Shown here piece by piece: positions 6,914 through 61,881 of a DNA stretch of 64,000 bases (the stretch's first letter is position 1; the number at the start of each line of letters is the position of its first letter). Location of the stretch: assembly GCF_026571515.1 (NCBI RefSeq), contig NW_026867252.1, positions 1-64,000 on the forward strand, given 5' to 3'. The position numbers were made by a program, and so were the translations under genes. The notes below the pieces were generated by a model, which was not told where the DNA came from, did not search any database, and worked only from the letters and a program-made list of their open reading frames with translations. The stretch comes from Ruditapes philippinarum. Taxonomy: Eukaryota.

Positions 6914-33068
<26,155 letters not shown>

Positions 33069-39095: not shown

Positions 39096-42000
39096 ATGGA
39101 TATAAAGTTTAAATTCATTTTCCTAATTTTTGGAATGAAGTTTATTGGAACCGTTGTGTGTGGTAAGATTTACATTGCTTTCCTGCATTTAAGTTATACA
39201 TGATTGGTTGTTTGCCTGTGCTTCTAAGGACAAAATATTATACATCAATCTTTTTTATATCTTTTTGATGCTCAATTGATTGATAATGACGCAATTGTAT
39301 TTTTTTATTTCTACCTCTATAAAGACATTTTTACAGCTATCCTTATAAGTTTACTATTTTGTTGTTTGTTGACTTTACACGGAGGCGTATGTGTGTGTGG
39401 TTAAGTTGCCCCGTACGCTACTTTAGTGTTGTTATAGGGTTTGGTCGTTCAGGATGATTAATTCCTGCACTTTAAGTATTGAAGCCGGTGCTCGGGGGGG
39501 GGGGGGGGGGTGAGGGGTTTTACACGTTTTCATTATCCCTCATGCACAGATTTAATCAAACCGAGTTTAAATTTTTATGTGAATAATGCTTCCAATGGAT
39601 CACCTTTTTTCAAGATTTTATTGGCATGTTAATCTGATTTTATCTTAAAACCTAGCAGCAAGTTCACTCCTTAACAAACCTATTGCCATATAGCATTGTC
39701 TATACAAGTCTATGTAAGTATGTGTATACAGTGTGCACGAAACCACAACATTTGTCATCTAAACGTGACATTTGTTTGCCATAATCATTCTTGATACATC
39801 ATAAAACGAATTTCTAGGAATTAAAGTACAGGGAAACGATGGTATATAGTATATATAAATTCTGATGAATAATGCATCACAACATTTTTAAAGGTGTCAT
39901 TTAAAAGCAATTATAAAAATATATAACTGAGTAATATCTTAAATTTCTTTAATAAACGATTTAAAATGTAAACTGCTTTACATGAAACAGTTGTTTACGG
40001 ACAAACTCACGCGAGTTAAAACCGTTGTAAAATGTGATTTCATTATCAAACCAACTGGCAAATGACATCGCACTAGGACGTAAAAGCACGATTGTACAAA
40101 ATTATATAACTAATCGCAGAATTAACGAACCAAACGTATACTTTTTGCGGTTTTATATGCGGTTGCACATGCTGCTGCAGATGATAAAGCACGGCAAAAG
40201 GCGCTTTAACCCACTTTTATTGTGCCCTAAAGTATTTTACGCTTTTCAAAATGTGTCGCATGTAACTCAAAAAGTATTTGATCTAGTGTCATAAAACTGT
40301 ACAGGAATGTTGCTCAGCATGTGCAGCTGTGTACCTGGGTTGTTTTTGTGGATATATGTTGTATTTATAGAATTATTGCCCTTGACTTAGTGAAAATTTG
40401 CAATTTTCAACTTCTGTCGCACATATTTCAATAGTATTTGACCTGGAGTCATGAATCCTTTAAGAAATGTTGCACAGCATGTGAAGTTGTGCACCTGGGG
40501 TTTTGCTTGTGGATTTACTCTGTCTTGTTTTAGTTATTTTCATTGACTTCATAAAAATTTACAATTTTCAACTTGTGTCGCAGGTAACTCAAAAAGTATT
40601 TGACTTAGTGTCATGAAACTTTATAGAAATATTGATCAGCATGTATAGTTGTGCACCTGGGTATTTTTGTGTGAATATATGTAGTATTTTTAAAGTGATT
40701 GCCCTTGATTTAGTAACAATTTACGCTTTTCAACTTGTGTCGCACACAACTCAAAAAGTATTTGACCTAGTGTCATGAAACTTTTTAAAAATGTTGATCA
40801 GCATGGGAAGTTGTGCACCTGGGGTTGAGGTTGTGGATTTATTTCTGTTTTGTTAGAGTTATTGCCCTTGACTTAGCAAATATTTGCAATTTTCAACTTG
40901 TGTCACATGTAGCTCAATGTAGCTCAAAAGTATTTGACCTAGAGTCATAAAACTTTACAAGAATGTTAAGTTATTGCCATTGACTTCGATAAAATATAAG
41001 CTTTTCAACTTGTGTCACATGTAACTCAAAACGTATTTGATCCAGTGTCATGAAACTGTACAGGAATGTTGCTCAGCATGTGAAGTTGTGCACCTGGGTA
41101 TTTTTGTGTGGATATATTTTGTATTTTTGCCCTTGACTTAGCAAATATTTGCAATTTTCAACTTGTGTCACATGTAGCTCAAAAGTATTTGACCAAGAGT
41201 CATGAATCCTTACAGGAATGTTGTTGAGCATGTTAAGTTGTGCACGTGGGGTTTTGCTTGTGGATTTATTCTGTTTTGTCTTAACTTAGTGAAAACCGTT
41301 TTATTATGCTGTGTTATTTGTTCCTCGAGTGCTTGAGTTAGAATTAACTAACTTTACAGGAATACTGATCAACATCACTGTGAAGCTATGCACCTGGGGT
41401 TTTGCATGTGGATTTTCATTTTTGTTAGAGTTATTGCCCTTGACTTAGTATAGATTTGCACTTTTCAACTTGTTCATGCATGACTCAAAAAATAATGTTG
41501 GTCAGCCATATACTCATGCACCTTGGGGTTTGCTTGTGGATTTCATTTGTATTTGTAAAGTTCTTGCCCTTGAATTAGTAAAAGAATTTTAGTTTTCAAT
41601 TTGTGGCACACGTAGCCCAAAAAATATTTGACTTAAAGTCATAAGATTTACAAAACAGTGGAGTGTGGGGGCACCCGCGTCCTATGGACACATTTCTATT
41701 TATCTTTTAATCCATTCCCTTTTATTTAATGGTTACAAACTTTATTCATGAATCAGTAAAATGAACATTCAAATACTTCAATAAAAGTTTATGTTATTGC
41801 TGTTTAATCAGTTATGGGTTAACTCAATGTAATGTGTCATATTTTTGTTAAGGTAACTGCCTTGAGTTTGAGGGTTTTAGTAGTGTTGTCCCGATTGTCT
41901 CTGAAAATCGATAACTAATCGGACCACCCCATAATCGGCAACAATCGATAGTCCTTTTTAAAAATCGATTATTTTAATGTTCTACCACGGCTGAATTGCC

Positions 42001-45000
42001 TATGGTGTAATTTTTTTACATGCAGTCGAAAAGAAGTTTCCCAACCGAATTCCGGACAATTCTAACGTATTTTTTGTATTCAAAACCTATTTAACATGGT
42101 TTATACTACTTTAGAAAATTATAGTGTGTAGTAACATAACATTATAAACATATATATCTACTGTAGTTAAATTAGTGATCTACAATACTACTCATTGATA
42201 TTTTGACATGCTGACTAGTACTAATATTGAATGCCATAAAGTTGTATTTTACAAAAATTTACTGTCACAAAGTAGTATTTAGGTATTTGTGTTGTTTGCT
42301 TTGAATTCAAAGAGCAAATCATACTAAAGAAAAAAGGGCCATTATAAGTGCGAAACTCGATGGTACTATCGGCAGACAATCGATTGTGATGGTCCGATTA
42401 TCGATAGTGATTTTTGAGTCCGATACCCAACACTAGGTTTTAGCCCTACTCATCTCGCGACCATGTGTCCACATGTGAAACCGATGTAAGTTGTTAGAAC
42501 TAATTACACAAACTAGCTAAAATGAATATTTTTAAATTGAAACTTACAAATTATGATCTCTTTGTTTCATTATTTTGTTCAAATTGCCTTTCAAGCAGCA
42601 TGCATTTAGATGCATTATAACTTTTATAAAAAAATGAAAATGTATTAAAAGTAAAAAAGGAGTTAACATATTGCAAACGGCACTTGCAATCCACGTAAAT
42701 TACCTGCTAAAAAGAGGTCAAAATATACAATAATAGTTCTTACTACGTAAGTCATGCAGTAGAATTATGATGATAAATATTGCAAAATCAGTCATCAATC
42801 GCTAGTTACATGTAAATTATTTCTTTGATATTGAATCGTTAACCTATTTCTTACAATCTTAATACATTTTATTTACGTTTGATTTCTTTAAATATTATGG
42901 CTAATCGGGAGGGATTGAACTTTTAAAACATAATTATTTATTTCATTTTTTTGACATTGTGTACAATTAACTTTACCCTTGGATTGTTCAATTAGACAGC
43001 ATTGCGAAATTGCTAATGCAGTAACACTTTTGGTAATATTTCTGCTCGTTTCGGATAATAAAAATATAACAAGAGTTTATTTAAATAGATACTATGCTCA
43101 AATTTGAAATAAGAAAATAATGATTGCTTCACAGTCTCTTTGTAAATATAAAAACTATTTTTTTACTTCGCCGAAAAAGATATTTTGTGTTTAAAACTCT
43201 AAACGTTGTAGGCGGTTACAATATGAATATATAGTGTCATTGAAAATTGGCAGTGTTTTTAAGAACAGACCAACTTTACTTGACCTGTAATAGGGAACAC
43301 AGCTTCCCATACATAGTTTATTATTTCTTTTACTCAAATTGGACTTATTCAGTAAGAATTTCATAGATTATAATACATTTCTGTGATTGAAATAATTTAC
43401 TCAAGGATGACCATATTATATCTTTAAAGTATACTCACAATATAGGCCGTCACATTACAAGACCACAATTTATCTAGAGTTGTTTTATCTTATGTCTGAT
43501 GCATTAATTAATGATTGTTGATGGCAATGATTCAGTTAAACAATATTTGTTTTGTAATCTTTTCATTTACATAAAAAATATATAAATATTAATTTACGTA
43601 TTGAGTCGGAAGCTTAAACAACAATGATAAGGTGGCATTTATGCTATTCCTGAGGTTTTAAACATTTGTTCAGCTCAGAATATGTAATGTGAATACCTAA
43701 CCTTTAATCAATTAAAAGTGTTAAACGAGTTAAAGTGCTTTAAAAAGAAGTTATACTCAACTCTTTCCAAAGCATCTTTAAATCAGAGAAAAAGCCTTTA
43801 CAATCCACACTGATACATTGTGAAATGAAATAATAAAATATACAAAATGTACGCGAGAATGAAATAACAAATATACAAGAGAGTAATTTTGACAACAAAT
43901 GCATGTTACACAAAGCAAAATGGACGTGATAATCGATATAAGTGTGGGCTAATAAAATACGCGAAGAGTGTTTCTCAACTTTCATCGTTTATTTGTTCTT
44001 TTTTATTCTTTAACAACCAAGTTCTTGTTTTTTTTTGTCTAGCCGGAAATCAAACATAGGTCTAACACCCTTAAAAACAAAACTTCTTTTACCATGGCTA
44101 CTTCGATTGTACTCTATAGAACGCGAAGGGTACGTCCGCTATGAAACATTTAAACTGTTATTTTCACATCAAGTTTTATACAACAAAGTTTGCTTCTTTG
44201 CAATACAACATTGAGACAATACACATGTTATAATAAAAGACCTTTTAAATCGTCAATGTATATCAAATGTAATAAATTATTTCGGCTTAGAAATGATCAT
44301 ATAAAATTTGAAAAGTTTAAAGGTAAACTCAGTACATTGTAAATGCCTAATTTATTTAAATATTATCAAAACCAATTACGAAATAAATAATGCTAAATTA
44401 CTGTTAAAGAAAAACGGTCCTAATGGTAAAGGTTGTAATATTAATTAAAATTTCTTAGATATATAATTATGAATTTATCTTTTATAGCTGAACTTAAAAC
44501 TTCCACTCAATTTGACGGACGATAACTGAAAATTAAAGTTGTGGAATTACGTGTCAATTTTACAAAATAATTGATCGAATGCAGGAATATCAAGAGGGTG
44601 CTCAGAAGAAAAAAAATGGCAATCAATGAATAAAAAGCATTTATTGCAGACCGAAAGATTTTGATTCCACTCCATCAGTAGTAGTAGTTATATATAAGGG
44701 ATTATAACCACTGCACATTTTGGAATATGGATACAATCGGGAATATGCATCCAACCTTGACCAAATGCGATTGGACGACGAGAATTCACGAAGCGATTCG
44801 TTAGCGTTCGTGATCGGTTTTTGGTAAAGGTAGGTAGTAAAGTGTACTATGTGTTTACTCGCGATGCAAGCGATTTATATATTATTATATAGGCCGTAAT
44901 TTTCCTTTAAACAGAGAGATACGTAGTTTTTGCTTTAAACAGACGACATGTCGTTGTGACAGGTATTAGCCTAAGGGTAGTTGTGTATTAACCTGTATCA

Positions 45001-48000
45001 CGCAGAAGTTATATAGAAAAATCTCACTGTTGAAACATTTAGCATCAGAGCAAAACATCGAACGTTACAGTTTCTTGAATATAGAAAATAAATTTCAAAA
45101 GTATTGATAGAGGATCATGGCTCAGAAACGCTCAGCAGAAGTTACGAGGACTTAAGGAGTCAAAATTTTTGAAAAAGATAGAAGAAAGCGAAAACGATGT
45201 GAAACTAGACAGCTCTGTTTTATCGTCCGGTTTTAAAAGTTTTCTCGAGTATGATTTTGTGTTGAAAACATTTTCAGTTACACTAGAAAAGGAGCGCGAG
45301 AATGGAAATAGGTGGGTTTGCTTTGGGGAGGAAAAAAACTGAAAACATCATAAAACTTCTGCCGGCGATAGAAAAGCTCGTTGATAGGTATACTTGTAAG
45401 AGATCTTCCAAGAATATAGACATACCGTTTGAGGCTTGTCGCGGTAACATCGGTGACTTGATTACTGTTGTTTCTTTGAAGGAGAACAATTACAAGAGAG
45501 GTCATTTCGATGTAGACATTCGAAAATGCGTGAAGATGGAAGAGGGATCATACAGATATACATCAGAGGGTGTGCGATTTACTCAGTCACTGATAGCAGT
45601 TTTAAACGAAACTCTTCTCGGTTACAAATCTACCATCACTCAAATAACAGACCGGACTTCGGAGGTGATTTCGATGACCACGGCATTTGTTATTATACGA
45701 GAAATCAACGAACTTGCAGACCCTCGACAAAATTGTCAAGGTTGTAAATCACAACATCCTTCTCAGAAACAGCATATGGTTGAAGGTGGCTGTTTGTCTA
45801 CTGATCAGCCGACATGGGAAGAGACCTGCAACAAATTCTGGCAAGTAGGGAAAAGTTTGATCAAAGACGAAGATGTTCAAGACCTTGCAGTAAGAGCTGT
45901 ATCACGTATCCCAGAAATGCAGGTATGTAATAGTAGTATTTCTCTTCTTCTTACAATAATAATGAAAATAATAATAATAATAATAATTATAAAAGTTATT
46001 GATTTTATTATATTGATAACATTTTTGAGGTTTCATAACTTTAAAACTAACTCGTGTAAGTATTAGGCTTTACATGTACATGTGAAATCATTTGTTCTTT
46101 ACTGTTAAACCTTGCTTTCCATATATTTCAGAAACAATTCATACCAGGACTCGTTCCAATGGAGCACACGCAAGACAGTGACTTGAAGGATTACGTTTTA
46201 AGAAAAGATGAATTGAAGGATAGTCCGAAGAAAACAAATATTATGTCATTATTTAGATAATTAGTGTGTGTTGATTTTTTTTTGTTATTCTTGGTGACAT
46301 GGTTTATTTCGTTTATATGTAAAAAGTTCTTTTATAGCTTTCTAATAAAATATGTTTGGTTTCCAGAATATGAATATATACATATAGAAATAATATATAT
46401 ATAAGTATGGAATGATGTTGTTGTTGTTTATTATTTGCATAGAAGTAACCAATAGAATCCGATATTTTCCGGTAGAAACCGGAATTTTCCGGTTAGAAAA
46501 ACAGTTGACCTCCTTTTCTTTAGGTTTATATCATTCGTTCAAAACACCTACTTCTAGCATGGCACAAGCACATGTTAACATTTGTACATCGGCGAGTAAT
46601 GACACAATGGGGTCTATACTGTATGAAAATGATTCGAGTAACATTACTAGCGAACTAAATACAGTAAATAGTAACAAGCGTAAAGTTAGCTTGAATCTGG
46701 ATGGATGTCACCATGTGTCTGTGTTTCAAAATGAGGAGGCTCGAGTGGTTATAAATATAAGAAAAGGAACGAGATCGGTTAATATTTCAAAAGAAGTTCT
46801 GATTCAGTTATGTGGTTTACAACAAGTGATTTTACAATGTTGTGAATTTATACAGTCATAATAATTTATCATGAATTTTCGAGAATATTTAAAATCTCTT
46901 TACTTTGATGTAAGCAGTCCGGTGTCCTTTAGCGGTGCAGAAAAACTGTATCAAGTTATCAAGAAACAAGGGAAATATAAAATTTCGAGAAATAAAATAA
47001 AACAATGGTTGCAGGAACAAGACGTATATACTCTTCACAAAGACTTAAGTAGAAAATTTAAAAGGAGGCAAATAATAACTTCAGGTGTAGACATACAGTT
47101 GGGCGTTGATTTAGCCAGCGTTGCGAACACTGCAAAATTCAACGACGGCATAAATTATTTACTGATAGTAATCGACGTATTTTCAAAGTATTTATTCGTT
47201 CAACATGTTAAGACTAAACGAGCTAAAGATGTTTTAGAAGCGTTTGAACTTATCTTACGTCAAGGACGCAAACCTCAAATAGTCTATTCAGACAAGGGCG
47301 GAGAATTTAATAACAAGTTGTTCAAGACATTTCTACTGAAAAGAGGTATTAAATATTTCACGACTCAAAACGAAAGCATAAAGGTTTCTCCGGTCGACAG
47401 ACTTATTCGTACGCTTAGAAATAAGATGCACAAACTCTTTCAAACCACCAGATCATACAGATACATAGAACACTTGCAAAGTCTTGCAAACAGTTACAAT
47501 GCGACTCCTCATCGCAGTTTACCTGAGCAGATGGCTCCATCAGAAGTCAATAAGGAGAATGAAGCCGAGGTCTGGGATTACATGTATACTCGAAATACGC
47601 ACAAAGGCAAAAAACTCCGTGTAGGAACACACAAACCCGAGCTTAAATATAAAGTAGGAGACTTTGTTCGTCTTGCGTATAGCAAACATACATTCCAGAG
47701 AGATTATCAACAAAAATGGACATCCGAGATATTTAAAATTCATGATCGATTTGTAAAACAAAATATTTCTGTTTATAAAGTTGCAGACTTCGATGGAGAT
47801 GTAATAGTCGGAACATTTTATGAACAAGAATTACAGAATTACATAAAAACGAAGACGCTGTATGGATTATTGAATTGATCCTCAAGAAAAGAAAACGGAG
47901 AGGCACTGATGAATACCTTGTTAAATATGAAGGGTGGCCTAATAAATTCAATTCGTGGGTGAAAAAAGATGATATTCAAAACGTAAACTGATAGAAAATG

Positions 48001-51000
48001 TCGTATTACATGATTTTTCGAAGCGACCAGGATCTCGATTATTATCCAAATAATAAACCTTATTGTTTTAAAATCAAGTTGCGGCAAAATATAGAATTAA
48101 ATGGAGACTGGGAAATTGCGTTGGCAGAAATAACTCTTAGAGAAGCGATCAAAAAGGAAGATATTTTGTATATCTACTCGGATATATGTGGAGAGAGCTT
48201 TATTAATGGAGTGAATGCTACTTTGTTGAGACGAGTGGTTGTAAATAATAACGAAAACGCCGCATTTTCCTCTTTTTATTATGTACCGTTGATAAAATCG
48301 GAAATTAATGAGAAAGAATTTAGAATTACTAACTATCAAGGGGTTACAGCAAAACATTTAAAAAATCCTGTTACTCTAGTGGTACATTTAAGATCACACA
48401 GATCATAAGGATATTAAAAAAATGAATGACAATCACCAATACGTACCTAATTATGAAAAATGGATACAATTTTATTAATCTGTTGGAAGATCAGAACATC
48501 CTATTTATTTTCACCCGGGAAAAATCTCTGATAAAAAGATAAATGGAACTATTAACAAAATTGAACAAAACCGAATAATTCCAATTGAAACACGTGATCA
48601 GAAATGCACAGATAAAACACCAGGATTGAAAGTTGAATTCGTTTCTCCGGCTCAGCAGATAGTAGAACAAGCAACCAGTGAAATAAAACGTGAAATGGAG
48701 ATACACCGACTAAAAATCAGTCTCGCAAAAGCACTCATCGGGATAAGAAGAAGAAGAAGAGGAAGAATACTAGAGTGAAGGGAGAATATGTCGGCAATCA
48801 ATTCTGATTATTTAGTTGAGGGACAACCTAGCGAACTGGAAATATTTAGCATAAATCCTACCCAAACAGCAGTAGACAAGTTATATTTTCAACAAGTACT
48901 ACCATTTGGACAAATAACGGATACTTCTCCGATACAATTTACAGTTAGTGGTCAGAATGGCATGGAGTACATAGACACAAAACGAAGTTTCATGAGTATT
49001 AAAGCAAGGATTGTACATCAAGATGGAAAAGCGCTAGAATCTGGTGAAATTATCGGTCCAGTCAATCTTCTTGCCCATGCATTATTCGATCAAGTTGATG
49101 TTACGATACAAGGAAAGTTTATAACTTCATCAACAGGTAATTATCCATTCAAGGCATACATACAGACTTTACTACAGTACGGTAATGATGCAAAGTCTTA
49201 TTATTATCAATTATCTACTCAGTGTTATTATCAAGACACACCCGGACATTTGGACGATAACGATGGGAAAACAGGTGCGAATGAAGGTTTCAAATTCAGG
49301 ACAGAACTTTTTTCTGAGAGCAAGAAAGTTCATATGTTCGCGCCGATTATACACGACGTGTTTCAACTGAATAGATACATTCTTAATCAGTCAGCGATGA
49401 ACATAAAATTCTACGGATCTAAACCTGAGTTTTACTTGATGACAGACGCTTTAATGCAGGCTTACAAAGTAGTCATCGACGAAATGGTGCTAAATATATG
49501 CAAAACACAAGTCAACCCTGCTGTCGTATACGCTCATAGTCAGCAATTAGAAAAAACTAATGCCAAATATCCGTATGTTAAAACGGAAGTGAGGTTAGCC
49601 GCAATTTCTCAAGGACAGGTTAATTTTAACATAGATAATGTATGTCAAGGGATAAGACCGAACAAGATTGTGGTGGCATTTGCTAATAGTCAGTCAGTTT
49701 CAGGTTCGTACCAGACCTCACCATGGAACTTTCAAGGATTCGGACTAACAGAACTAACGGTATCAATTGATAACATCCCATGTTTAGGTAACCCCGTGAG
49801 ATTAAATTTTGATGCAACGAACGGAGTAGATACAACGGAAGCTTTTCATTGGTTGTTTGAAAGTAGTAAGAAATGGCTAAGGATGAAGGCAATCAAATCA
49901 CTCAGACCGATTTTGCAAAAGGATTTGCTGTGTACGCGTTTGACATCGAACCGGCTTATCAGGACAGAAATTATTTAACTTCAGTAAAACAGGGAATCGT
50001 TAGAATAAGTGCAAATTTTGCAAGTCCGCTACCGTCTCCAATTACCTGTATTATCTACACAGAAGGGGTCGGTTACTTTGAAATTAATAAAGCGAGGGAT
50101 GTAATTGTGTACCAGTGAACTTAAACCGTGAATACATATTCAAATTCTGTAATTTATAACCAATAACTATTTTATTTTTAATCATTTATAATTGTTATAG
50201 CTGTGTATATGTATAATACATGTAAAATTTACGAATATCTCTATTTAATAAACATTTTGTTAACTAATGAGTGTGAACAATTAAGAAACGTTAAGAGTTT
50301 GTACAACAGTCAATCTGTCAACAACGTAAATATCATTTCTTTTTAAACTAGAATTCAGTATTGATATCGTTATTGGTGTTTAAGTAGTCATATTAGGAGG
50401 GATAAAAAAAGGTTCATTCTTTCCTGTAGTTTATTCGATTCTCTGACGTTTATAGCTGCTAGAATCAACCATGACTTCATTACAAAGTAGTCCTCAAGAC
50501 TCAACCGAAGATACTGTCACAACTAAAATAATGGAATCTTTTACTGAAGAAAATGTATTTCACATGGAATCGAGAAATTTAAAATGTCACTTAAATGTTA
50601 TTAAATGGATTGGTGTTGTAGTTTTACTTTTCGTTTACACATCTATACCTGGAATAATAATTCTAAATGATCAGAAAGCGCGTTCAGTCGATGTTTTGGA
50701 TTACAAAATTGAGATGCAACAACAAAACGAGACTGCATGTGTCTTTATTAAGCAGTATGATATTTATCACGATACATACGTCACAGTGTGTAATAGGTAT
50801 GGAGTTGTCGTGCTAGATATAAGACGATTTTTCAACGACACAGCATCCATTATCGGAATACAAATCAGTGAGAGACAGTGGATTAAACTAAAACAAGTTA
50901 CACCTTTAGTAGATAAAGCAATTTCTGAAGCTCGAACATATTGGAAAGACTTGAAAATTTTGAAATACAAAAACGAAAAGTAGACTCAAATATGTGAGAC

Positions 51001-54000
51001 ATATCGTTCAATACATAAATCAGCTTGCTATGGCGTGGTAAGAAACACAGTCATTGTTACCGCTAGAAAGTCCGTGTACATTAACATTGATTTCTGCTTC
51101 CAACGGAGGAAAAACATTTTTTGTAGAAAGACTTCTCAGAAATTCAAATGGAATGTTTACTGAAGATATTTCGACTATTGTTTATTGTCACGGTAGTTCT
51201 TGGCAACGAATATTTGATGACATGCTTGAAAGCAAACCTAATATAGTTTTTAAAGAAGGAATGCCGACAGAGAACGAGCTCGAGTTGTTATTAAAAGATC
51301 CCGGTCACTCTTGTCTTATTTTAGATGACTTGATGACAGAAATAAATAAAGACAAAACAATGGAAAAACTTTGGACAGTTCATTCACACCACTATAAAAT
51401 GTCGATTATTTATTTGACTCACAATATGTATCAGAGGACCCCATCGGCTAGAACGATAAGTCTAAACACGCAATATTACGTTCTGTTTAAAAACCATAGA
51501 GACATTCAACAAATTCAGCATTTTGGTAGACAAATTTATGGAAATAAAAGCGGGTTTTTTAACAGAGCATATCAGTTAGCAACTAGTCGAGCGTGGGGGT
51601 ACTTGTTAGTCGATTTACACAGTCATTCGGATGATAAATATAGACTCAGAACTAATATATTTCCAAATGAGGATTGCATCGTCTATACTCCGGAGTAAAA
51701 CAGATGAAAAATGACCGACGTGTTGAAAAAGGAAGCTACATTTCTTCAATACTTTGTTAAACTTAGCGATAGTGAAAAGAAATCAATATCCAAGCATCTG
51801 ACAAAATCTCAAACATCAGCAATAAGTCAGATTTTGTTCAACGCTATTAAAGGTACGTTTCAGTTGAACAAATCGCAAACATCGGAGTAAAAAAGGTACA
51901 GAACTTCTCTTTATACTATTGCTGACAAGAAAACGTCTTTACAACTAAAAAGGAATTTGGTTTCAAGGAGAATTCGTCAAGTAACCCTAATATTGAAAGC
52001 AGGGTTGAAGTGGATACCAGACAATCGCTGAAGCTATGTCAGCGAAGGAACTTGTACTTCTATCGAAACAAAAATACAATCTTTTAACAGACAAGCATTC
52101 TGTGGAGAGCGTGTCTGTGCATACGCAAACGCTCGATGAGAAAATTCTTGAAAAAAGTGTAGAGAATGAAGAAACTTCAAGCGAGCTACGTGACAACAGG
52201 GCTTAACAAAGTAATAATACCACAAAAGCTGTTCGGATGTCATCATGGGGGAATGTGCCTGGAATTCGGAAGAAAGAAATAAAAACTAAACCAAAGAAAT
52301 ATGTCAGATGGATTCCTTATTGAAAATGTTTAAAAGGGGAAAAAAACAACAAGTAAAATTCAGGAAAACAGGAATTTTATTTACAATATGTTTCATTTCA
52401 AATCTCGCTGTTAAAGCACAATAGATAATACACACATAATAATAATAATTTCTATCTCATATTTTGTGTAATATACATTTTTTTTATAATAATGATATTG
52501 TACGATTTGAATAAAAGTTAAACATAAGTCTGATATTGTATTCTCTCTCTCTCTCTCCAACATTTTACTAATTTCAGAAGGTAAACAAACTTTTACAGGT
52601 TGAAAGAGTCTAGTAAACGTTGTACCTCATCTTCTTCCTCCTTTTGTTTTTGTTTGTATTTGTTAATTGAATAGAACAATATCCAGCGGTTTGATGTGAA
52701 TTCCGTCTTGTAAAACAACCCTTTTACAATAAAAGTAGTAAAATGTCTGCTTTGGTTGAGAGTATGTAAAAACAGAATTATTAAAAGTTCTTATACCCCT
52801 GTTTATAGCTGTAACAGGATTTCTTGTTCTCATTACTTCTTCAAACTGATTTAAGGGATTGAAGAATTGTTTATTCACGCCTTTTAAACTGTATTTAACA
52901 TTCGTTATTCCTCCTGCAACAGCGTTTACTCCTACGTAAGATTTTGAACAAAGGCCTATAAATTTAGTCCCCTTAAATTCTAATTTCATTAAACCTGGAG
53001 TTCTTGAATCATACTTATTGTGATGTTCACAGCATTCTCTGGGAAGCCAAATGTTTTCAAAACAATCACCAGTAAAATCATCTCTACAGTTTTCGTGAAG
53101 TGAAGACAAAACTTATTGGCGCTTCTCGGGTTTGACCGCATCCGGTAATGATTCACTTGATAGAGCAAAATAACACGAGTCGGTGTCCATTTCAACCATT
53201 TCAAAGTTTTCCCTTTCTGTATATCTATCTAAAAAGTCGTAATAAAAAGAAAGCATGTGTAATTTTGCATACTGTAAAATCGTGAATCCTAAATAAACCG
53301 GAGAATCTATGGATATATTCGCATTCGCAAATTCAGATTCAAAAATCATGTCTCCAAGTTCGTTTAATTGACGAATTATTAATCTAGGATTATTTACAGC
53401 AAAGCAGGCCTTTTTAAAACCTTCTACATACTTAACCCTGAGAAATTTTTCTTTATTTATGATGGTTCCACCAAAAGCTGAATTTCCAATTAATTTTGAT
53501 AACGCGCTCCTCAGCTCTTGAGATTTATTGACATCACCTGCACGTCTATCTCGTGTAATACTATCACCAAAGTCTTTAAAACACGACAGTTTATTAAATT
53601 CTACCACTTGGTGGATTCTTGTTATTTCTAGTCCGTGTTTTAAGTACCACTTTAACAACGGAGAGGACAACAACAGTCTTTCAGCTTTCATTCCATTAAC
53701 CAACAGGGTACGCGGTTCCTTTGAAAGTCCGTACTGCTCCACGTGGCTTTGCATATGCTCCCCAAAACACTCAAAAGGCACCTCTGTTGTACAAAACAAG
53801 GGACTCATTTCTTCGAAATACTCGTAAGGAGAAAGGCAAGTGTTTGGTTTGTAGAAAACATCATTCCAAGATGTAGGTACGCGAATATCAACCTCAATGA
53901 ATCCAAAAAGTGTCTCATCAATAACCGACTTGAGAATCGCCGACTCTTCAACAGCACCTTTATTACTGTTATAAAAAGAAGGATAGCGGTGCTCTACAAA

Positions 54001-57000
54001 TTTTCTCATTTCACTATTTTCCTTAAGTTGCTGTCGGTATTCGCACTCCCAAATTGACACGACATTATATCCTTGGTATTTTAAGTATGCTATTCTATGT
54101 TTGGTTCGAGAATACCGTTCTGTTTGTATTTGTTGATCAGTAGATACTACACAACTATGTCCGTGAAAATAGCAACCAAGAAATTCGTACGCAGTGTTAG
54201 TCGTACAATCATATCCGTCGAGTAAGTATGGTCCTACTCTTGTTTCCACTCCGTTGTTCATTTTATGTTTAATTTTAACGTGACGACTGTAATTAAGCCA
54301 TTCCATCCAGTCGTACATCACCTGATATCTGTTTGTAGACCTAACAGGACGAAATCCATGTTCTCGTTTCCGTCGAATGTAATTTCCACATGGCATTGGT
54401 TGACAAATACAGTATAAATATAAAGCATTAGCATCGTATCCTACAATAGACTTGCATGGATACTGTTCATTCCCTCTTATATTTGTAATGTCTGCCTCTT
54501 GCATTCTTGAAAATATCACGGATGGACCTCCAATTATATTTGCTTTCAATACATGGTACAAGTCTTCGTCATTTCTATCAATCAACGGAAAATTAGCCCC
54601 TTTTCCTAATCCTGACTGAAACATACTTTTTCTTGCGGCACAGGGAACAGATAAACAGTTTTTAAATATGTCTATACCCTTATCTACAAAGTGTAATCTA
54701 TACTTCTCTATTCCTTCCACCATCGGCAAAGTGTCTAGATTATTGTAATATTTCAAAAAGTCAAAAAATGTTTTCATGTTGTTTTGACGCCAGATTTTTA
54801 GTAAAGATTCATATCTTTCATCTATTTTCGATATAGGTGGAGATTCTAACTTTAAATGCTCCAAAGCCTCTTTCTCTGATTTATTATCGTTTCTAGTAAG
54901 TTTTTCAAAGTCTATCCTGGTTGCGTCTTCCAGAGTGTTACATTGTTTTAATGTGGAAAAGAAAGTCTCTTTTGGTGGAAGGGATGGCTCGTCTAACACC
55001 GATAAGTTAGTGAAGTACTCATCAGGAAAGTAACTTTTTCTGTGTTTAACATCAAATGTTTGCAAAAACTTGTCATACGACGTACCTGGTGGGAGATAAT
55101 TTATCATATCCAAGAAACGAAGGTTGTTGTTCGACAAATATATTAAGCATTATTTTTCTTTACCACAAACTTTTGTTGATTGGGTTTATGAAGTTTTAAA
55201 AGTTTTGCTAACTTATTTTTTACCAAATTTAAGTCATACTTGGCAGAATTATATCCAATAACGGGAATTTGTTTACAGTATGTTTCAAAACGTTCGCAAA
55301 TGCGAAGAATTGATTTGAACATTAATTTCGAAGTTTCAGGAAANNNNNNNNNNNNNNNNNNNNNNNNNNNNNNNNNNNNNNNNNNNNNNNNNNNNNNNNN
55401 NNNNNNNNNNNNNNNNNNNNNNNNNNNNNNNNNNNNNNNNNNNNNNNNNNNNNNNNNNNNNNNNNNNNNNNNNNNNNNNNNATCATTTTCGTCATCATCA
55501 TCATCATCATCGTTGTCATCACTCTCGATTCGTGTAGAGTTTAAGGCATGAAAAGGTTGAATAAAGTCATCATCATCATCATCATCATCAACATCATCAT
55601 CAACAACAGCAGCAGCAGCAGCAGCAGCGGCATCACCTACATAACCATTATCATCATTTTCGTCATCATCATCATCGTTGTCATCACTCTCGATTCGTCT
55701 ATGGTTTAAGGCATGAACAGGTTGAATAAAATCATCATCATCATCATCGAAATCACTTTCCATTCTTATAGTAGTCCTCGCATTCAGTGCACGAATAGGT
55801 AAAGTAGAATCAACAGAATCGAAATCATCAAGATTTGTACCTATGTTGCTAGCACACTCCGTACTGTTGCTGATGGAGGAGGTGGAACTGAGGTTGCTGT
55901 CACTCTCCCAGTTGTTATATTGCACTTGAAATGTACCTGAAGACTCGAGGTTTTTCAAACATTTATAGAAAACATTTTCTTTGCTCGTGGCGTATAGAAA
56001 TTCATTCGAAAGCGGCTCATACTCCTTACTTTCTTTTGCTTGATTCTCATCATCATCATCATCATCATCGTCATCAGAGCTACCCAAATTAATGTCGTCT
56101 TTCATGTTCCACTGACTCTGTAATCTGTCTAAACTCGTAAACACATCTCTCCACCTGACTTTTGCTAACGCATACGCTCTATCAGATATGTCATTCATGT
56201 ACGATATCATTTTATTCAGTAAGATGTCTGGGTCGGATTCAAGTAAGAACTAAGGATTTTCAAAACTATCAACATTACTGCAGACACTGACCGATACTGG
56301 CTGGTGAAGCTGTGTTTTGGTAAGTCTGTCTTCCGAATTTTCGCTAACTGTTTTAAGCATGGCTTCGAAATCAAATGTAACAAACCAAGGATAATTCTGT
56401 AAAGATGTATTCACACAAACCCCAAGGTCTTTTAGTTGATCGAAGATAGATTTCGGTGGAGTGTAGTAACCACCGCGGAATCTTAATTTTGTTGCGTTCT
56501 GACATGTTTTCTGGTGTTGAAGTAGATTATCTTTGCGATTAAATAGCTTGTCACACAATCTACATTGGAATTTTAAGGCGTACGATGAAAATGTTGATAC
56601 ATAACTGAGATGGTCTTCAAATAGATTTAAATTCATTGTTTTATTTGTCTCACCAGAGAAGACTTCTCTGGATCTGTATAGCACCTGAACAGTCTTATCT
56701 TCACTAAGTTCATAAACATTTATATTTGTTTCAAAACATTGCTCTAAATCGCACATTCTATTTAGTGTAACGTCTGTCAGTTTTAATTTCTTTGTGGAGC
56801 AATACTGTATCCAAGTATTATGAAATTCTTTAGTTAAAGTTTCGCATTGAATATTCTTTATTTTGTGATAAGACAAACAGCGAAAAAAGCATAAATTATC
56901 CGCGTATAATCTCTTGGTATATGGATTCTTCTGAAAGGATACTATACTCTTCGAGTGTAAGATATATTTCGGTAATGGTTGACTTAAACCGAGAGGAAAG

Positions 57001-58358
57001 CTCGTATTGTTCACATTATATAGTACATTTGAAATGAACACCGGGCGCCATTTTGAATTTGGCTTTTGTTTGTGAAAATAATTAGGAATATCCAGTTTAG
57101 ATAACCGCAAAAGTAACATTTCAATGTCTTTTCTATTATTAATAAGCTGTGGGAATAAAAATATTTTATCGGTGTAATGCGCAGAAAAGTATCTGTATTC
57201 TTCCGACTCAACATGCTGTAAAATGAGTCCAAATGAAATATTAATTTTAAAAGCAGTTTGACTTCTTTCAAAAATATAATTAATTTGATCTTCCAACTGT
57301 TCCATTGTATTTAAATTTGGAACTGGAAAATTGTATGTACTCCTCACATCACCTTCTCTCACCCTTTCTCCCAAAATCAAATGTCTATGTTCTATGTAAA
57401 CCCGCTTCATTCTATCATTTATACTCCCGTCGGCATTCTCCCATGGAGGACTTTCATTCCTCTCATCCCAAGGATAAAGTTGTAAATTCGAAGCAGTCGG
57501 TTGATTATGCACTAACATTCTGTGACGGTACAAATCTTTGTAGTCCGTAAAGCACTTGTCACATCGTCGACATTTAGGCTGAACGTGACTATTCTGGGAC
57601 GTTCGCTGTTTTCCATTAGTCTCACTCTCTACGTTTTTAGTAGTGTTATTAATACAGCTTTTATTCTCAGTACTACTTCCCCCGGCTTGGTTATGCTTTA
57701 AACTGAATTCATGTTTTACTAAAAGTCCATGGGAAGCGAATATCGCGCCACAGGTTTTACACTGAAAACCTTTATTCTCCTTGACAGATTGATTCTTTTC
57801 ATTTTTGCTTCTACAAAGTTTTTCATGTTTGAGTCGACCTCTGTAGTTTGTGAATTGCTTCCTGCATATCCCACATAGGGTATTATCCGTTTTTTTCACT
57901 AAACGCCCAGCACATTTCTTTTCATGTTTGTTTAGATTAAACTTTGTGGAAAATTGTTTTTCACATTTAGAACATATTGGTATCTCTTTATTTTTGTTGT
58001 TGTTGATACTAAAATTACTGTTGGTTCCATTGTTATTCTGGTGGTTAACAGTATGTCTGCTGGTAGAGTTCCTGAAATTTTAATAAAATAAAGATAACAT
58101 TAGTATACGATTTGAGCATACGTACTGTGCAGTTGATGTTGACAAGACTTTACAGTTATATTGACTGAAAGACCTTTATCGAGTTCATTGTGGAATGATC
58201 AACAAACAAACAAGCATCCTGAACGAAATACCTGTCATAGTTCTCGTTGTTCTTTTGACGTTTCGCTAGTTTTCTATCATTGTCTTGGGTACTACGACGC
58301 TCCTCCTGCAAAATATATATATTTTATTATTACTTCAAAACAACAAAGTTGTCATCAC

Positions 58359-58391
<33 letters not shown>

Positions 58392-61300
58392 AATCGACAT
58401 ATAGAATTTGTACCTGAATTGTAGTACCGGTTCTTCATGCTTTCTCATTCTTTAGTTTTCTATTTCATGTGATAGATATCTATATTTAAATTCTTTATAG
58501 AAGTAAATAAATTATATTATTATATTATTATAATTACCCATTATATTGTTTTTTTATGACGCGGCTCATTTGCTATTTCATTTGTTTGTTTGTTTGACAA
58601 CAGACCCATTCAATTACTTCAACGTGTCAGACTAAATACTCTATATAATATTGTGTTTGTAAGCGTGATAGTACTCTCCTGCGCATCGGTCGAATGTTTC
58701 AATATCGCTCACTGTCTGAAGTAACGTGAGGTATTCCATGAGCTGCAAAGGGAGCGTAGCGTGAAAGATGTTGCACTTTTCAGTTTCAAGCGTGCGATTT
58801 TCACTTTTATTCGTTTTATGGCTACTTCCTTTCTTCAGAAAATATACACCATACTGCTTGTTGTACTGTCGTCAACCATCCTGCATATTTAATTACATAT
58901 ACACATATAGTATGTTAATTTAAGTAAAGTATTGAATTTAACTTCCGTTTGTACTTAAACCGTTACTTCAATCATTATTAAAGCGTCATTTTAAAATCAA
59001 GCAAACAATGCACACATATTGAATCATTTGACAGGAAACAAAACTAATATTAAATTTATTGTTCAAGTTTCAAGTTGAATCGTTTGAGGATGAGTTTCAA
59101 AGGAAACAAATTATCTGCACAATCTTTCAAATTCACTTTGTGCAAACATTCTGATCAGTGTAATCAAGATTACAGTTTGGTAATATATTGTATCGAATCA
59201 CTACCTTGAAAATGCTGATACATAGCTTTTTTTCTTGCCTGGTCAATTTCATAATATCAGACAATCGTTTGGTATTCTATTAAGTATGTGTTCAATTTTA
59301 ATATGCGCTTATTTCTTTAAATTTCAAATGAAACAAAAATACTGTCAAGAACCTGTCCAGTTCATTCCACGCTCAGTAATATACCAAAGGTCATATCTTT
59401 TAGAAAAATTCCCAAATGTTTTTTTTTGTCAAATGTAAGACAGACTTCAAAATCCAAAAATAAATTCGATTTAAAGTTAATCAATTTAATATGTTCACCT
59501 ATTTGGAGATAAAATATTACATTTTCTTCATTTTATTTCAATATATATTGATGAACTGTCTGATAAAACTGAGGGTGACTCATAAAGCTAAATTTATCAG
59601 GCATAAACTTTAATTTAATGACATGGTAAAGTAATATCTATAATGTACTAGTAACTCAAACTGATTGCAGGAGTATGGCATAACATTATGAGCTTCTTTA
59701 GATAGGATATTTTTCCCCATCTTTCTTTGACCGCCTCTAATTATAATGGGCTTGTAATTTTCTATTATAAATATTTTTTTAACATTAAAATTTTAATTTT
59801 CAGCATGTCCGTCAACAGTACATAAGGATGTCAAAGGGTTTGGACCAGATTGTAAATACAGATGTAATTGTAAGAATAATGACCAATGTGATGAAAATGG
59901 AATATGCCCGCAAGGTTGTTTGTATGGATGGATGGGACCAGCTTGCCAATACCGTATGTCAGTTTGACATAAATAATCGTATACAAATGAAAGGAGTAGC
60001 TTCCATGTATTTATTAGATTCTGGATATAATAATTTCTTTAGGTCAAATATTTCAATTCAATATTTTTGAGATTATTAAAGAATCTGCATACCGGCGGGT
60101 ATGGTGAAGATTATTTATTTAATGTAAAACTTGATATAATATATTTTCTCTATTTCATCAAAATATTCTATAATTTATGTGCAGATATTTGTTTGTACTT
60201 TAAACTGAATATATAAATGCACAAGAATTCAAATCTGAACGAAAATATCAAATAACTGACATATTCATGAAATCTAAGTATTTATACAATGATGATTTAT
60301 GTTTAGTTAATCATGCATTAACATCAAAGCAAGCTATGCAGAGTGGAAATAGTCCCTTTTTGGGACACTTCGCAATAGATGGTGATGCAAGTTCATGTAG
60401 TAGGACAAATCCAACAGTATCAGAACAATTATGGTGGAGGGTCGAGCTAAATTACAAGCTTTATATAACTGGCCTTGTTCTCAATATACCAGGTTCAGCA
60501 ACAGGTGTGTTAATTCTATATTAAGTTCTAAATTTGTAACTACAGTCAAATTGCAAGATTATTTCTTCATTGTGGCGGCGTTGCCGAGTGGTTAACGTCT
60601 GACTAGTAATCTAAGTATTGCTAGACGCGTGGGATATGGACAAGCCCTTGTTTCCCTGAGCAAAGAACTTTAAACTCATTTTTTTACTGATTTGTTCCTG
60701 GAACGGATTCGAGAGAGTTTCAATAAACTTATACATGTAGCTTCCAACACAATCGAACTAACAAAAAAATAGTATAAACCAAATTGAAAGTTTTCTTTAT
60801 CTTATTCGTAACCTGATGTGAATCAACGCAGGGCATTTGGTTACTTATTTTTCTTACCGATACATGATTTCACTCGGGTGTCTAAAGATAATACAAAGAT
60901 ATAGATTAGTTCAAAACAACTTGCCATGAGGTTATTTCGTGATATGAGTTTGGGTCATTTGACAACGATTGAGACTAAAAAAAGATTGAAGCATTACACT
61001 AAATACCGTACTCCGGTATATACTGGATAAGGCGCTTGAATGATAAAATGCTAAAATCGTGTCCTTTTACCCAACGAAATGAACTTTAAAAGGTCTAATT
61101 CATCGATTGATGTATGATTATAAATTAAAAAATGTAATAATCGGAGAAATAAACGATATTTGTCTATTTATTGATCATGATTTCTGCAAGCGTCTAGAGG
61201 TACTGCTCCAGTCCTTTAATTGCTTTTGAGAATTTTTCTTGTATTAAGACTATTATTGAATTAGAGTATTATTGAAAATAAGAGTTTTAAGTGATCAAAC

Positions 61301-61881
61301 AGTAATCTATATTCTGTAATTCCGTAATCATTTAAACAATTCAAAGACATTAAATATATATCTATATAAACACTTTTATTTTGTTGTAAAGTTTCAGTTT
61401 TTATAGCACTACGTACTTCTATATAGGAATGCCTAATTCTGCATTTAATAAACATGTGCATACCTCTTCATTTGGACAATTAACATTATCTTGCGTCAAG
61501 CATGTATAACTGATACTGTACTGTTTCCATCCGTCACATTTGTATTATTTTATACCTCCGTCAAAATTCATTGGGCTATTTTTCCCTGAATTGATTTATT
61601 TCTTCTGAAATCCGTTCATTCGCGTTTGTCGCAATCGTGAAGTCTTCTACCATAATGATCAGATAAATTCCTTTTTTTTTCAGAGAAGTATAGAGGTTTT
61701 ACTATAGAGATAGGAAACGGCACGGATGTAAAAGACTTATGTTATCAACATGGAACTGACAGTAACGGAAGTAGGAAAATGACAATCTACTGTGAAAAAG
61801 AGATAATTGGTAATGTGGTGGAAATTAAACTCGCTAAAAATGTAGACAAGCTAACTCTATGTGAGGTTCAAATATTTGGAG
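39096..61881 (+). CDS. Tandem paralogue of the EGF/FTLD receptor (partial; exons 1-4, presumably continues beyond the window)
   Basis: Exon 1 39096-39162 (MDIKFKFIFLIFGMKFIGTVVC signal peptide, G|GTAAG phase 1). Exon 2 59804-59953 (CKYRCNC..DQC..GC..GWMGPACQY versus gene 1 CQYRCHC..DQC..GC..GWMGPGCQY). Exon 3 60307-60504 (AIDGD..CSRT..WWRVEL). Exon 4 61684-61881 (CYQH..LTLCEVQIFG). Intron phases match gene 1, and exon 4 is 198 bp in both. Confidence 0.85.
40240..41700 (-). mobile_element. Older Helentron-type element / satellite-like array of roughly 160-bp diverged units
   Basis: Recurring aaaagtatttgacctag.gtcatgaaact..gttgtgcacctggg..gcccttgacttag..ttttcaacttgtgtc units (about 9); ends gggggcacccgcgtcctatggacacatttctattt. 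Confidence 0.75.
41881..42435. mobile_element. hAT-type MITE with 8-bp TSD
   Basis: TIRs tagtgttg ... caacacta with subterminal atcgat/atcgg repeats; perfect TSD ggttttag at 41873-41880 and 42436-42443. Confidence 0.9.
45117..46260 (+). pseudogene. Polinton accessory gene: PC4-like region plus Cys/His motif (CQGCKSQHPSQKQHMVEGGCL); two 5' frameshifts; one intron 45923-46131
   Basis: ATG at 45117 with shifted frames leading into ORF 45302-45922. FDVDIRKCVKMEEGSYRYTSEGVRFT resembles PC4 IDIRE..GE.KPG.KGISL. Donor CAG|GTATGT and acceptor TTTCAG|AAA give an in-frame 42-codon last exon ending TAA at 46260, followed by AATAAA. Confidence 0.7.
46559..46861 (+). CDS. Small Polinton protein (about 100 aa), possible PC4-like fold
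   Basis: ORF 46412-46861, likely start at ATG 46559. C-terminal LNLDGCHHVSVFQNEEARVVINIRKGTRSVNISKEVLIQL follows the PC4 strand/helix pattern. Stop lies 10 bp before the integrase ATG. Confidence 0.55.
   Translation: MAQAHVNICTSASNDTMGSILYENDSSNITSELNTVNSNKRKVSLNLDGCHHVSVFQNEEARVVINIRKGTRSVNISKEVLIQLCGLQQVILQCCEFIQS
46871..47991 (+). pseudogene. Retroviral-type (rve, DDE) Polinton integrase with C-terminal chromodomain, frameshifted near 47838
   Basis: YTLHK, GVDLA, LIVIDVFSKY, SDKGGEF, VDRLIRTLR (third acidic residue is D rather than E), YNATPHRS, FYEQELQ. The -1 frame continues WIIELILKKRKRRGTDEYLVKYEGWPNKFNSWV (chromodomain), stop at 47989-47991. Confidence 0.93.
47998..48408 (+). CDS. 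Polinton minor capsid protein (penton, single jelly-roll), 136 aa
   Basis: YPNNKPYCFKIKL..IELNGDWEIALAEI..LYIYSDI..LLRRV..YVPL..VTLVVHLR matches the Polinton penton motif order. Confidence 0.85.
   Translation: MSYYMIFRSDQDLDYYPNNKPYCFKIKLRQNIELNGDWEIALAEITLREAIKKEDILYIYSDICGESFINGVNATLLRRVVVNNNENAAFSSFYYVPLIKSEINEKEFRITNYQGVTAKHLKNPVTLVVHLRSHRS
48422..48778 (+). pseudogene. Small basic-tailed Polinton protein (putative DNA-binding core protein), premature TAA at 48476
   Basis: MNDNHQYVPNYEKWIQFY*..KVEFVSPAQQIVEQATSEIKRE..RRRRRGR. Single frame that exactly fills the gap between penton and MCP. Confidence 0.65.
48788..50118 (+). pseudogene. Polinton double jelly-roll major capsid protein, frameshifted near 49875
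   Basis: SELEIFS..PTQTAV..SPIQFTV..YIDTKRS..GPVNLLAHALFDQVDV..YPFKAYIQTLL; ORF 49873-50118 supplies the C-terminus DFAKGFAVYAFDIEP..FEINKARDV. Confidence 0.92.
50471..50983 (+). CDS. PC4/Sub1-like ssDNA-binding-fold protein with N-terminal hydrophobic (TM-like) segment, 170 aa
   Basis: YDIYHDTYVTVCNRYGVVVLDIRRFF..IGIQISERQWIKLKQV aligns by eye to the PC4 pattern [42 protein letters not shown]. Hydrophobic stretch VIKWIGVVVLLFVYTSIPGIIIL lies upstream. Confidence 0.75.
   Translation: MTSLQSSPQDSTEDTVTTKIMESFTEENVFHMESRNLKCHLNVIKWIGVVVLLFVYTSIPGIIILNDQKARSVDVLDYKIEMQQQNETACVFIKQYDIYHDTYVTVCNRYGVVVLDIRRFFNDTASIIGIQISERQWIKLKQVTPLVDKAISEARTYWKDLKILKYKNEK
51030..51698 (+). pseudogene. A32/FtsK-like genome packaging ATPase; premature TAA at codon 4
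   Basis: Walker A variant SASNGGKT, Walker B LILDDLM, SHH..SIIYLTHN, RTISLN..YYVLFKN.RD, GYLLVDL, RLRTNIFP. The in-frame ATG at 51030 is followed by TAA at 51039. Confidence 0.9.
51711..52031 (+). pseudogene. Conserved small basic Polinton protein (core-like), premature TAA at 51888
   Basis: MTDVLKKEATFLQYF..KKSISKHLTKSQTSAISQILFNAIKGTFQLNKSQTSE*KRYRTSLYTIADKKTSLQLKRNLV resembles the small basic ORF that usually follows the ATPase (I..I..N.L.G...L..L..LA.KK.S). Confidence 0.65.
52036..52323 (+). pseudogene. Small Polinton protein (MSAKELVLL..YNLL..PG..RWIPY), premature TAA at 52204
   Basis: One frame 52036-52323. N-terminal K.LVL....Y..L and C-terminal PG...W..Y motifs are typical of a conserved Polinton accessory ORF. 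Confidence 0.55.
55344..55481. other. Assembly gap (138 N) within the PolB acidic repeat
   Basis: Run of N adjoining (TCA)n tandem repeats. Confidence 1.
55482..55800 (-). repeat. Coding tandem repeat (DDDFIQP.HALN..RIESDDNDDDD units) with (GAT)n and (GCT)n microsatellites
   Basis: Two near-identical units (55483-55590, 55651-55750) plus a degenerate third (LPIRALNARTTIRMESD). Confidence 0.9.
58536..58570. repeat. 35-bp terminal remnant of the palindromic MITE family seen at 2322-2531
   Basis: acccattatattgtttttttatgacgcggctcatt versus the reverse complement of 2322-2357, acccattatgttggttttgtcgtgacgcggctcatt. Confidence 0.7.
60574..60760 (+). mobile_element. tRNA-derived CORE-type SINE, degenerate
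   Basis: A-box-like ggcggcgttgccgagtggttaa, then gtttccctgagcaaagaactttaaactcatt (CORE-like) and ggaacggattcgag. Confidence 0.65.
60996..61215 (+). repeat. Interspersed repeat, copy of 13285-13530
   Basis: Colinear similarity over about 200 bp. Confidence 0.8.

Follow-up and report, generated by a model that had tools for sequence, protein, structure and literature searches.

Conservation of the major capsid protein (MCP), penton, packaging ATPase and protease is the main argument for Polinton virions (PMC4028283, PMC10748475). Krupovic et al. 2014 found a protease in 74% of 72 Polintons, and Table S1 of that study includes Polinton-1_DGr, Polinton-N1_NV, Polinton-N1A_NV and Polinton1_SM, which have MCP, penton and ATPase and no protease (PMC4028283). 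Adintoviruses were collected through adenain searches (PMC8502044). The first-described Polinton-like viruses (PLVs) and tectiviruses have a double jelly-roll capsid module (MCP, minor capsid protein (mCP) and ATPase) without a maturation protease (PMC4642659). We analyzed a stretch of 64,000 nucleotides from Ruditapes philippinarum (assembly GCF_026571515.1, contig NW_026867252.1, positions 1 to 64,000), referred to here as the window. At 44677-58536 it holds a Polinton with integrase, likely penton and core, capsid, ATPase and protein-primed polymerase (pPolB) genes, without an adenain/Ulp1 gene. A preliminary description of this element had taken a protease to be usual in Polintons, and the figures above bear this out, though a protease is not universal.

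Distribution of the protease

Loss of the protease at the level of the lineage is well supported. The preliminary description had suggested a streamlined lineage, and the absence is indeed a trait of the lineage and not the loss of a single copy. A protease profile matched 0 of 9 regions of the window's clade, compared with 21 of 23 capsid-bearing regions outside it. Loci were sampled through an ATPase search of the 1.4-Gb assembly with 150 scored matches, from which the closest neighborhoods were taken, together with further MCP, terminal inverted repeat (TIR) and PC4 matches. The profile was built from 7 proteases and run on 38 regions in six frames, with X at stops. It matched 24 regions and missed 14, namely the nine clade regions, three short non-autonomous elements, C9026 and C1829 (C numbers are contigs of the window's own genome and P numbers are database proteins). 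The nine clade regions are the window, C13841, C11455, C1069, C1855, L060, C15139, C15785 and C4543, with a best score of 1.7 bits. C1069, C1855 and C4543 were assigned to the clade via ATPase, PolB or DNA identity, outside the tree described below. Six of the 21 positive regions each supplied a seed of the profile. The two capsid-bearing misses outside the clade are C9026, where the contig stops at the MCP, and C1829, which is rearranged and has a 98%-identical sister, C12301, that carries the gene. C15785, C9026 and C5480 are fragments and uninformative on the protease.

For the window element, the profile scored at most 0.5 bits across 44001-64000, which confirms the first impression that it has no maturation protease. 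The 352-bp spacer after the MCP gene, earlier described as AT-rich with an AATAAA, has 26% GC, one AATAAA and a longest stop-free stretch over six frames of 54 codons. The slot between MCP and ATPase is readable and protease-free in all five clade members where it could be scored (window, C13841, C11455, L060 and C15139). The protease lies directly 3' of the MCP in L080, C8727, C9746, C12520, C13927b and C7741. C11455 runs from TIR to TIR at 9400-22413, with TIRs 80% identical over 290 bp and a 6-bp target duplication, and has no protease. The same holds for the independent metagenome contig L060, in which eight open reading frames (ORFs) in a row, from orf2 to the small ORF, are unbroken and none is a protease. 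Full-length sister copies had been named as the place where a protease might still turn up, either in the MCP-ATPase slot or beyond the right end. None was seen in the copies checked, and past the window's truncation point the profile found no protease in C1855, C11455 or C13841. A genome search with PF00770 gave no match, controls included, and is hence uninformative; it was superseded by a native protease query and our own profile. A protease homologue search yielded only 47 candidates and was too insensitive to count either way.

The MCP tree was a quick IQ-TREE search with 78 rows (20 from loci and 58 of 120 listed database proteins), rooted at the midpoint, with no bootstrap. Six protease-less rows fell in a single 27-row clade with an SH-aLRT of 98. 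This clade is nested among protease-positive rows, and C1829, the seventh protease-less row, represents a separate loss. The relatives among which the clade nests have the order integrase-penton-core-MCP-protease-ATPase-core2-small ORF.

Selection on the capsid genes

Substitution rates were compared among the window, C13841 and L060, with dS ranging from 1.2 to infinite, near saturation. The MCP was the most conserved gene of these three members (dN 0.10-0.13, dS 1.6 to saturated). Values of dN were 0.13-0.15 for the ATPase, 0.15-0.20 for core2, 0.17-0.26 for the PC4-fold gene discussed below and 0.17-0.28 for the penton (dS 1.2 or saturated). Purifying selection is thus kept on MCP, penton, ATPase and core2 in the protease-less clade. 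The clade has thus long endured without a protease while its capsid module stayed under constraint.

Cleavage motifs and particle maturation

The cleavage sites of adenain are (M/I/L/N/Q)xGG↓x and (M/I/L/N/Q)xGx↓G, and that of the mavirus protease is GG↓x (PMC6048507). Motifs of the adenain type were found in core1 of 5/5 protease-positive elements versus 1/6 protease-less ones, in the small ORF of 4/4 versus 1/5 (that one at another position) and in the N-terminal region of PolB in 4/4 versus 1/6. Pooled, this amounts to 13/13 versus 3/17. The chance of a motif in shuffled core1 or small ORF was 0.01-0.29 per protein, and C7741 and C2707 had no scorable core1 or small-ORF match. Decay alone is a weak explanation for the loss of motifs because decayed protease-positive copies keep them. 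The lack of a QxGG tail on the ORF at 51711, pointed out in the preliminary description, is real but uninformative, since none of the 12 scored elements has it there, protease-positive ones included. That description had also offered the PolB vOTU, a helper element or a host protease as a substitute. None of these is favored, as most cleavage motifs are eroded in the clade; the erosion argues for a relaxed need for cleavage over a helper or the vOTU.

With moderate confidence, we propose that the window element is a dead copy from a clade in which the adenain/Ulp1 gene disappeared before the sampled members split, selection on the capsid module continued and particles likely form without adenain-type cleavage. 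The (M/I/L/N/Q)xGG and xGxG motifs of core1, the small ORF and the PolB linker would be the former targets of the protease. Loss of the motifs would mean that the clade gave up the cleavage step, which PLVs and tectiviruses, with capsids of the same type, also do without. The PolB vOTU would still release the terminal protein, a role that has been proposed for all Polintons (PMC11161782).

Several points weigh against this proposal. Gene context is available for only 5 of the 27 tree rows in the clade (C15785 is a fragment, and no context is known for 21 rows, P0013-P0033, which include the Mactra antiquata gene ACF0H5_017279), and the tree itself is a quick, midpoint-rooted search without bootstrap. 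No pristine full-length element was among those sampled: C11455 has internal deletions, L060 shows no PolB and C13841 is without its left end. Some cleavage may persist because core1 still has QTGG in C13841 and, at the corresponding position in L060, the near-motif VTGG; the window PolB retains one QAGG. Among the motif-negative rows, several are incomplete or decayed, and the rows do not count as independent. The clade has a PolB of a type other than that of the protease-positive sisters, so the PolB linker is not a like-for-like comparison. Finally, that these motifs are cleavage sites in Polintons at all is inferred from adenovirus and mavirus.

It is conceivable, though unlikely, that cleavage is still needed and is supplied in trans, by proteases of co-resident Polintons or by host SENP/Ulp1. 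The latter enzymes cut after QTGG-like ends, such as the end of SUMO, and the core1 site survives in C13841, and almost survives in L060, although dS is saturated. The genome also has at least 75 protease loci, 55 of them without an MCP match within 5 kb, which makes help in trans possible. However, the abundant stand-alone proteases that we examined come from a distant family whose core motif differs, and the motif is missing from core1 in 5 of 6 clade members and from the small ORF in 4 of 5. The mavirus protease, moreover, must be packaged during assembly (PMC6048507).

Quite unlikely is a clade that makes no infectious particles at all and lives on as an intragenomic transposon, its capsid genes kept for an intracellular role or slowly decaying. 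Such a view would fit the broken state of every genomic copy seen here and the short non-autonomous elements, 95-98% identical to the window TIR, that show recent transposition. It sits poorly with an MCP that is the most conserved gene, with the constraint on penton, ATPase and core2, and with the unbroken ORFs in L060 and in database homologues.

We regard it as very unlikely that the PolB vOTU domain took over virion maturation. vOTUs do process viral polyproteins (PMC11161782), the Cys and His motifs are kept in the window, C13841 and C11455, and purifying selection acts on the region (dN 0.27, dS saturated). The same motifs are kept in protease-positive L080, though, so that terminal-protein release explains their retention, and the structural proteins show no new conserved cleavage motif. 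Loss in the window copy alone, or a gene hidden past its deleted right end, is hardly tenable: one-copy loss does happen in this genome (C1829 against C12301), but the empty slot common to five members with near-saturated synonymous divergence, and right ends without a protease in C1855, C11455 and C13841, largely refute it.

Gene order and condition of the window copy

Table 1. Features of the Polinton at 44677-58536, in window coordinates
Feature	Coordinates	Strand	Evidence or remark
Left terminus, (AGT)n repeat and TIR of ~290 bp	44677..44974	+	84% to right TIR of C1855
Upstream ORF region orf0/orf1, broken, likely spliced, Cys/His motif	45085..46220	+	homologues in C11455, C13841, C15139, C5480
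orf2, small conserved ORF preceding integrase	46559..46861	+	47% to L060 ORF 960-1220; also in C13841, C11455, C15139
rve integrase with C-terminal chromodomain, frameshift ~47830	46871..47991	+	PF00665 E 1e-9, PF00385 E 7e-10
Likely minor capsid protein (penton), open frame	47998..48408	+	position; 41-70% identity among relatives
Basic core-like protein core1, one stop and one frameshift	48422..48778	+	no adenain-type motif in window copy
MCP, frameshift ~49880	48788..50118	+	78% to 441-aa L060 protein
AT-rich spacer, no protease remnant	50119..50470		position of the protease gene in relatives
Predicted type II membrane glycoprotein with PC4-fold domain, open frame	50471..50983	+	AF2 model, Foldseek, family statistics
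A32/FtsK-type packaging ATPase, stop at codon 4	51030..51698	+	PF04665 E 6e-4 (below cut-off); 76% to L060
core2, conserved basic helical ORF, internal stop	51711..52031	+	homologues in protease-positive and protease-less elements
Small ORF, internal stop	52036..52320	+	without the QxGG motif found in protease-positive relatives
Protein-primed DNA polymerase B, several stops/frameshifts, one N stretch	52663..58079	-	homology to other Polinton PolBs
Last element-derived DNA before deletion	58104..58536		77% to C1855:33517-33944

The gene order and strands first listed held up (Table 1), with the AGT-repeat terminus at 44677 and pPolB converging on the minus strand. The plus strand carries the two upstream ORF regions, the rve integrase, the penton-position ORF, core1, MCP, PC4-like gene, ATPase, core2 and small ORF. 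This block is as tightly packed as had been reported, with 4-13 bp between most genes. The orf0/orf1 region gave no Pfam match. A suspicion by eye that orf1 and orf2 are homologous to PC4 was unsupported by the PC4-fold domain profile. The PF00665 match of the broken window integrase is above the cut-off, and the L060 integrase is a single 372-aa ORF. The labels "penton" and "core" likely apply, judging from position and homology to relatives; the penton-position ORF has no Pfam match. Database homologues of the MCP occur in bivalves (clams, oysters, mussels and scallops), where they are named capsid protein or F54H12.2-like.

The window copy is decayed. Stops or frameshifts interrupt the integrase, core1, MCP, ATPase, core2, small ORF and PolB; the penton-position ORF and the ORF at 50471 are open. 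The left TIR is 95-98% identical to both ends of C15351 and C6900, and an empty-site junction lies at 44677, the left end of the element. A paralogous empty site on C12781 matches the host DNA up to 44677 and again from 58549. Since the match resumes only at 58549, the right TIR and ~2.56 kb of host flank must have been removed by a deletion after insertion. The right end, already suspected to be incomplete, is therefore so because of this deletion. In the ~4% of one RNA run that was read, 21 reads fitted in part, all at the flank and TIR, and 0 fell in genes, which is not evidence either way. Contigs of three other runs are collinear with parts of the element, and none covers the whole MCP spacer.

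Exon-like pieces flank the element at 11073-12354, 32237-32644 and 59828-61880. By eye, we take these to resemble fucolectin/F5-8 domains and a tyrosine-phosphatase C-terminus. The element may lie within an intron belonging to a duplicated cluster of host genes, which has paralogues on C12781. Upstream, at 40207-41660, there are about nine tandem copies of a ~162-bp repeat, likely a host satellite or a Helitron-type repeat.

The predicted PC4-fold membrane protein

The ORF at 50471 encodes a 170-aa protein with an N-terminal tail, a predicted transmembrane (TM) helix at about residues 47-65 and a PC4-fold domain that has two N-glycosylation sequons and two conserved cysteines. The helix was absent from the earlier "PC4-like" description. 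An AF2 model on an 88-row alignment, whose rows were chosen for length and coverage, reached a pLDDT of 82.6. With Foldseek, its C-terminal domain matched human PC4 (1pcf) with prob 1.0, TM 0.83 over the target, rmsd 1.3 and E 2e-3, and the top 10 rows were all PC4/MoSub1. A first fold model (13 sequences, pLDDT 60) had given weak PC4 matches only and no useful match in a wide search, and the ESM Atlas gave no usable match. The window protein itself has no PF02229 match; its relatives P0178, P0238, P0250, P0291 and P0310 pass that cut-off. There are ten close database homologues of the 170-aa protein and 317 clusters at 50% identity.

A hydrophobic 19-mer is present in 82 of the 88 alignment rows, and in 119 of 149 among the new matches listed. 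In these 82 rows, N-glycosylation sequons after the helix average 2.2 versus 1.0 in shuffles, with at least one in 81, and basic residues are commoner before the helix in 71 rows and after it in 5. The two cysteines are near-invariant across the family alignment. These patterns point to a type II membrane glycoprotein with its PC4 domain outside the cytosol. The predicted luminal topology suggests that nuclear single-stranded DNA (ssDNA) binding is not its role; the protein would more likely act at the membrane, in egress, attachment or exclusion of other elements. Soluble PC4 genes carried by other Polintons of the genome also match the PC4-fold domain profile (E about 1e-11) and are a plausible source of the membrane version.

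The preliminary description had placed a PC4-like gene in the protease slot. Both the position and the fold stand, but replacement of the protease does not. C15139 has neither gene, with MCP and ATPase ~280 bp apart, and at 9 of 17 other loci, in satellite elements without a capsid, a protease is found no more than 4 kb from the PC4-fold gene. Because one element lacks both genes and the satellite family has both, the PC4-fold gene is not a protease substitute. Probably it arrived only after the slot had been vacated, or else C15139 lost it. Scans of viral contigs with the TM-PC4 alignment and with the MCP found no relatives, and our full-text paper searches turned up no description of a membrane-anchored PC4 protein, though annotation files and supplements may mention one. 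That the clade switched from adenovirus-like particles matured by a protease to a protease-free particle entering or leaving cells across membranes by means of a PC4 ssDNA-binding domain repurposed as surface glycoprotein, and that this glycoprotein defines a widespread undescribed family of viral membrane proteins, is rather doubtful.

The DNA polymerase

The window PolB has C2H2 fingers, a likely terminal-protein domain, a vOTU with Cys/His motifs, an acidic insert, an exonuclease, a VSR-like insert and a palm. We take these labels, that of the VSR-like insert included, from motifs presumed to mark the domains. They also draw on published descriptions (PMC11161782, PMC10748475). The protein has no Pfam PolB match, and the vOTU Cys/His motifs were found by pattern. 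PF03175 did not match the PolB pieces of the window and C13841; the control, L005, matched at E 1e-44. A mollusc pPolB2 with a VSR insert has been described (PMC10748475), and this VSR-bearing pPolB2 of Jeong et al. is likely the match for the non-PF03175 ("Beta"-like) pPolB of the clade.

Close relatives of the window PolB (at least 43%) in this genome are confined to clade loci and the orphan fragment C5480, and the PolB of protease-positive sisters is only ~22% similar. An exchange of polymerase may thus coincide with the loss of the protease. The exonuclease region of the window PolB contains, at 55480-56090 on the minus strand, a long acidic insert of poly-Asp/poly-Ala that includes a 165-bp duplication. 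C13841 and C4543 also have acidic inserts at this position, but shorter ones.

Related elements

L080 (JBEVXT010000217.1) is a complete-looking animal-type Polinton in a bacterial metagenome-assembled genome (MAG) labeled Sedimenticola sp. It has the window's gene order, an MCP 49% identical and a protease (PF00770 E 1e-3). L080 is likely host contamination of the bacterial bin, with a similar case in an Escarpia endosymbiont bin (P0147). The 9.2-kb contig L060 has no PolB and has a 73% inverted repeat near both ends, at 95-508 and 8495-8900. It is possibly an element without polymerase and protease, or its repeat may be a host repeat.

Non-autonomous elements of 4.6-5.2 kb were found at C15351:66353-71176 (L040), C1376:17495-22700 (L041), C6900:198599-203218 (L042) and C2228:644228-644529 (L043). 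Their terminus is 95-98% identical to the window's, and they have fold-back arms reaching 1.7 kb (95-99% identity), an ORF of ~205 aa with C2H2 fingers in the middle and, in two, a perfect or near-perfect 6-bp target duplication. The group is evidence of recent mobilization by the window's family.

A multi-copy family of 8-12 kb has AGTAGT termini and long inverted repeats, with loci at C5835:27813-36218 (L049-L050), C4347:55964-66020 (L055-L056), C6486:33886-45851 (L052-L054) and others. Its genes are for a TM-PC4 protein, a fusion of zinc finger and ATPase, a core protein and a protease; those for capsid, integrase and polymerase are missing. The TIRs show 93-96% identity to those of the autonomous C4304-type family, and the family is likely a satellite equipped with packaging and maturation genes of its own. 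TBP-like and BIR/IAP-like ORFs, labeled by eye only, occur in other Polinton families of the genome (L006:5359-5901 and 7306-7752; L028:4046-4459).

Comparison with known systems

The rve integrase, pPolB with vOTU, MCP, packaging ATPase and AGT-terminus TIR make the window element a Polinton; the window copy has the left TIR, and sister C11455 has both TIRs with the 6-bp duplication. With Polintons/Mavericks and adintoviruses (Polintoviricetes), it shares AGT termini, TIR, 6-bp duplication, integrase, pPolB-vOTU, MCP, penton-position ORF and ATPase. The clade differs from other Polintons in having no adenain/vUlp1, eroded cleavage motifs and a membrane-anchored PC4-fold gene. We file the element as a Polinton and not as an adintovirus sensu Starrett et al. 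because it has no adenain gene, and a protease is typical of Polintons without being universal. Protease-positive elements of the bivalve type, such as L080, have the same gene order apart from the protease; compared with L080 and C8727, the clade has a PolB of another type, on the opposite strand.

PLVs and tectiviruses also manage without a maturation protease. Their absence may be ancestral and most have no rve integrase, whereas the clade shows a derived loss within an integrase-bearing, protease-positive group. The element is set apart from PLVs by its rve integrase and by an MCP that falls among animal Polinton MCPs, in a tree without PLV MCP rows. The product of the ORF at 50471 has the same fold as PC4/Sub1, including the PC4-like gene labeled MOSUB on the published map of a lancelet adintovirus. 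It differs from PC4/Sub1 by its TM helix, its N-glycosylation sequons and a pair of near-invariant cysteines, which suggest a luminal or extracellular domain. A membrane-anchored, likely glycosylated PC4 domain would be an unusual repurposing of a nuclear fold.

Among the papers listed by full-text searches, none was on a protease-less animal Polinton clade, with Repbase and bioRxiv supplements outside the search, and none is described in the available portions of 10.1101/341131, 10.1101/2023.10.06.561300 and 10.64898/2026.10.13.758929. The protease-less Polintons tabulated in 2014 share the capsid-complete, protease-free state with the clade, a comparison of gene content only; in Table S1 and the text consulted here they are single entries, without analysis of clade, selection or substrates (PMC4028283). 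Protease-less Polintons as such were thus already on record. Surveys seeded with adenain (PMC8502044) would miss whole lineages of this kind. A clade that dropped the protease and most of its target motifs under strong selection on the capsid, with syntenic protease-positive sisters as controls, offers a natural experiment on whether animal double-jelly-roll viruses can do without maturation cleavage.

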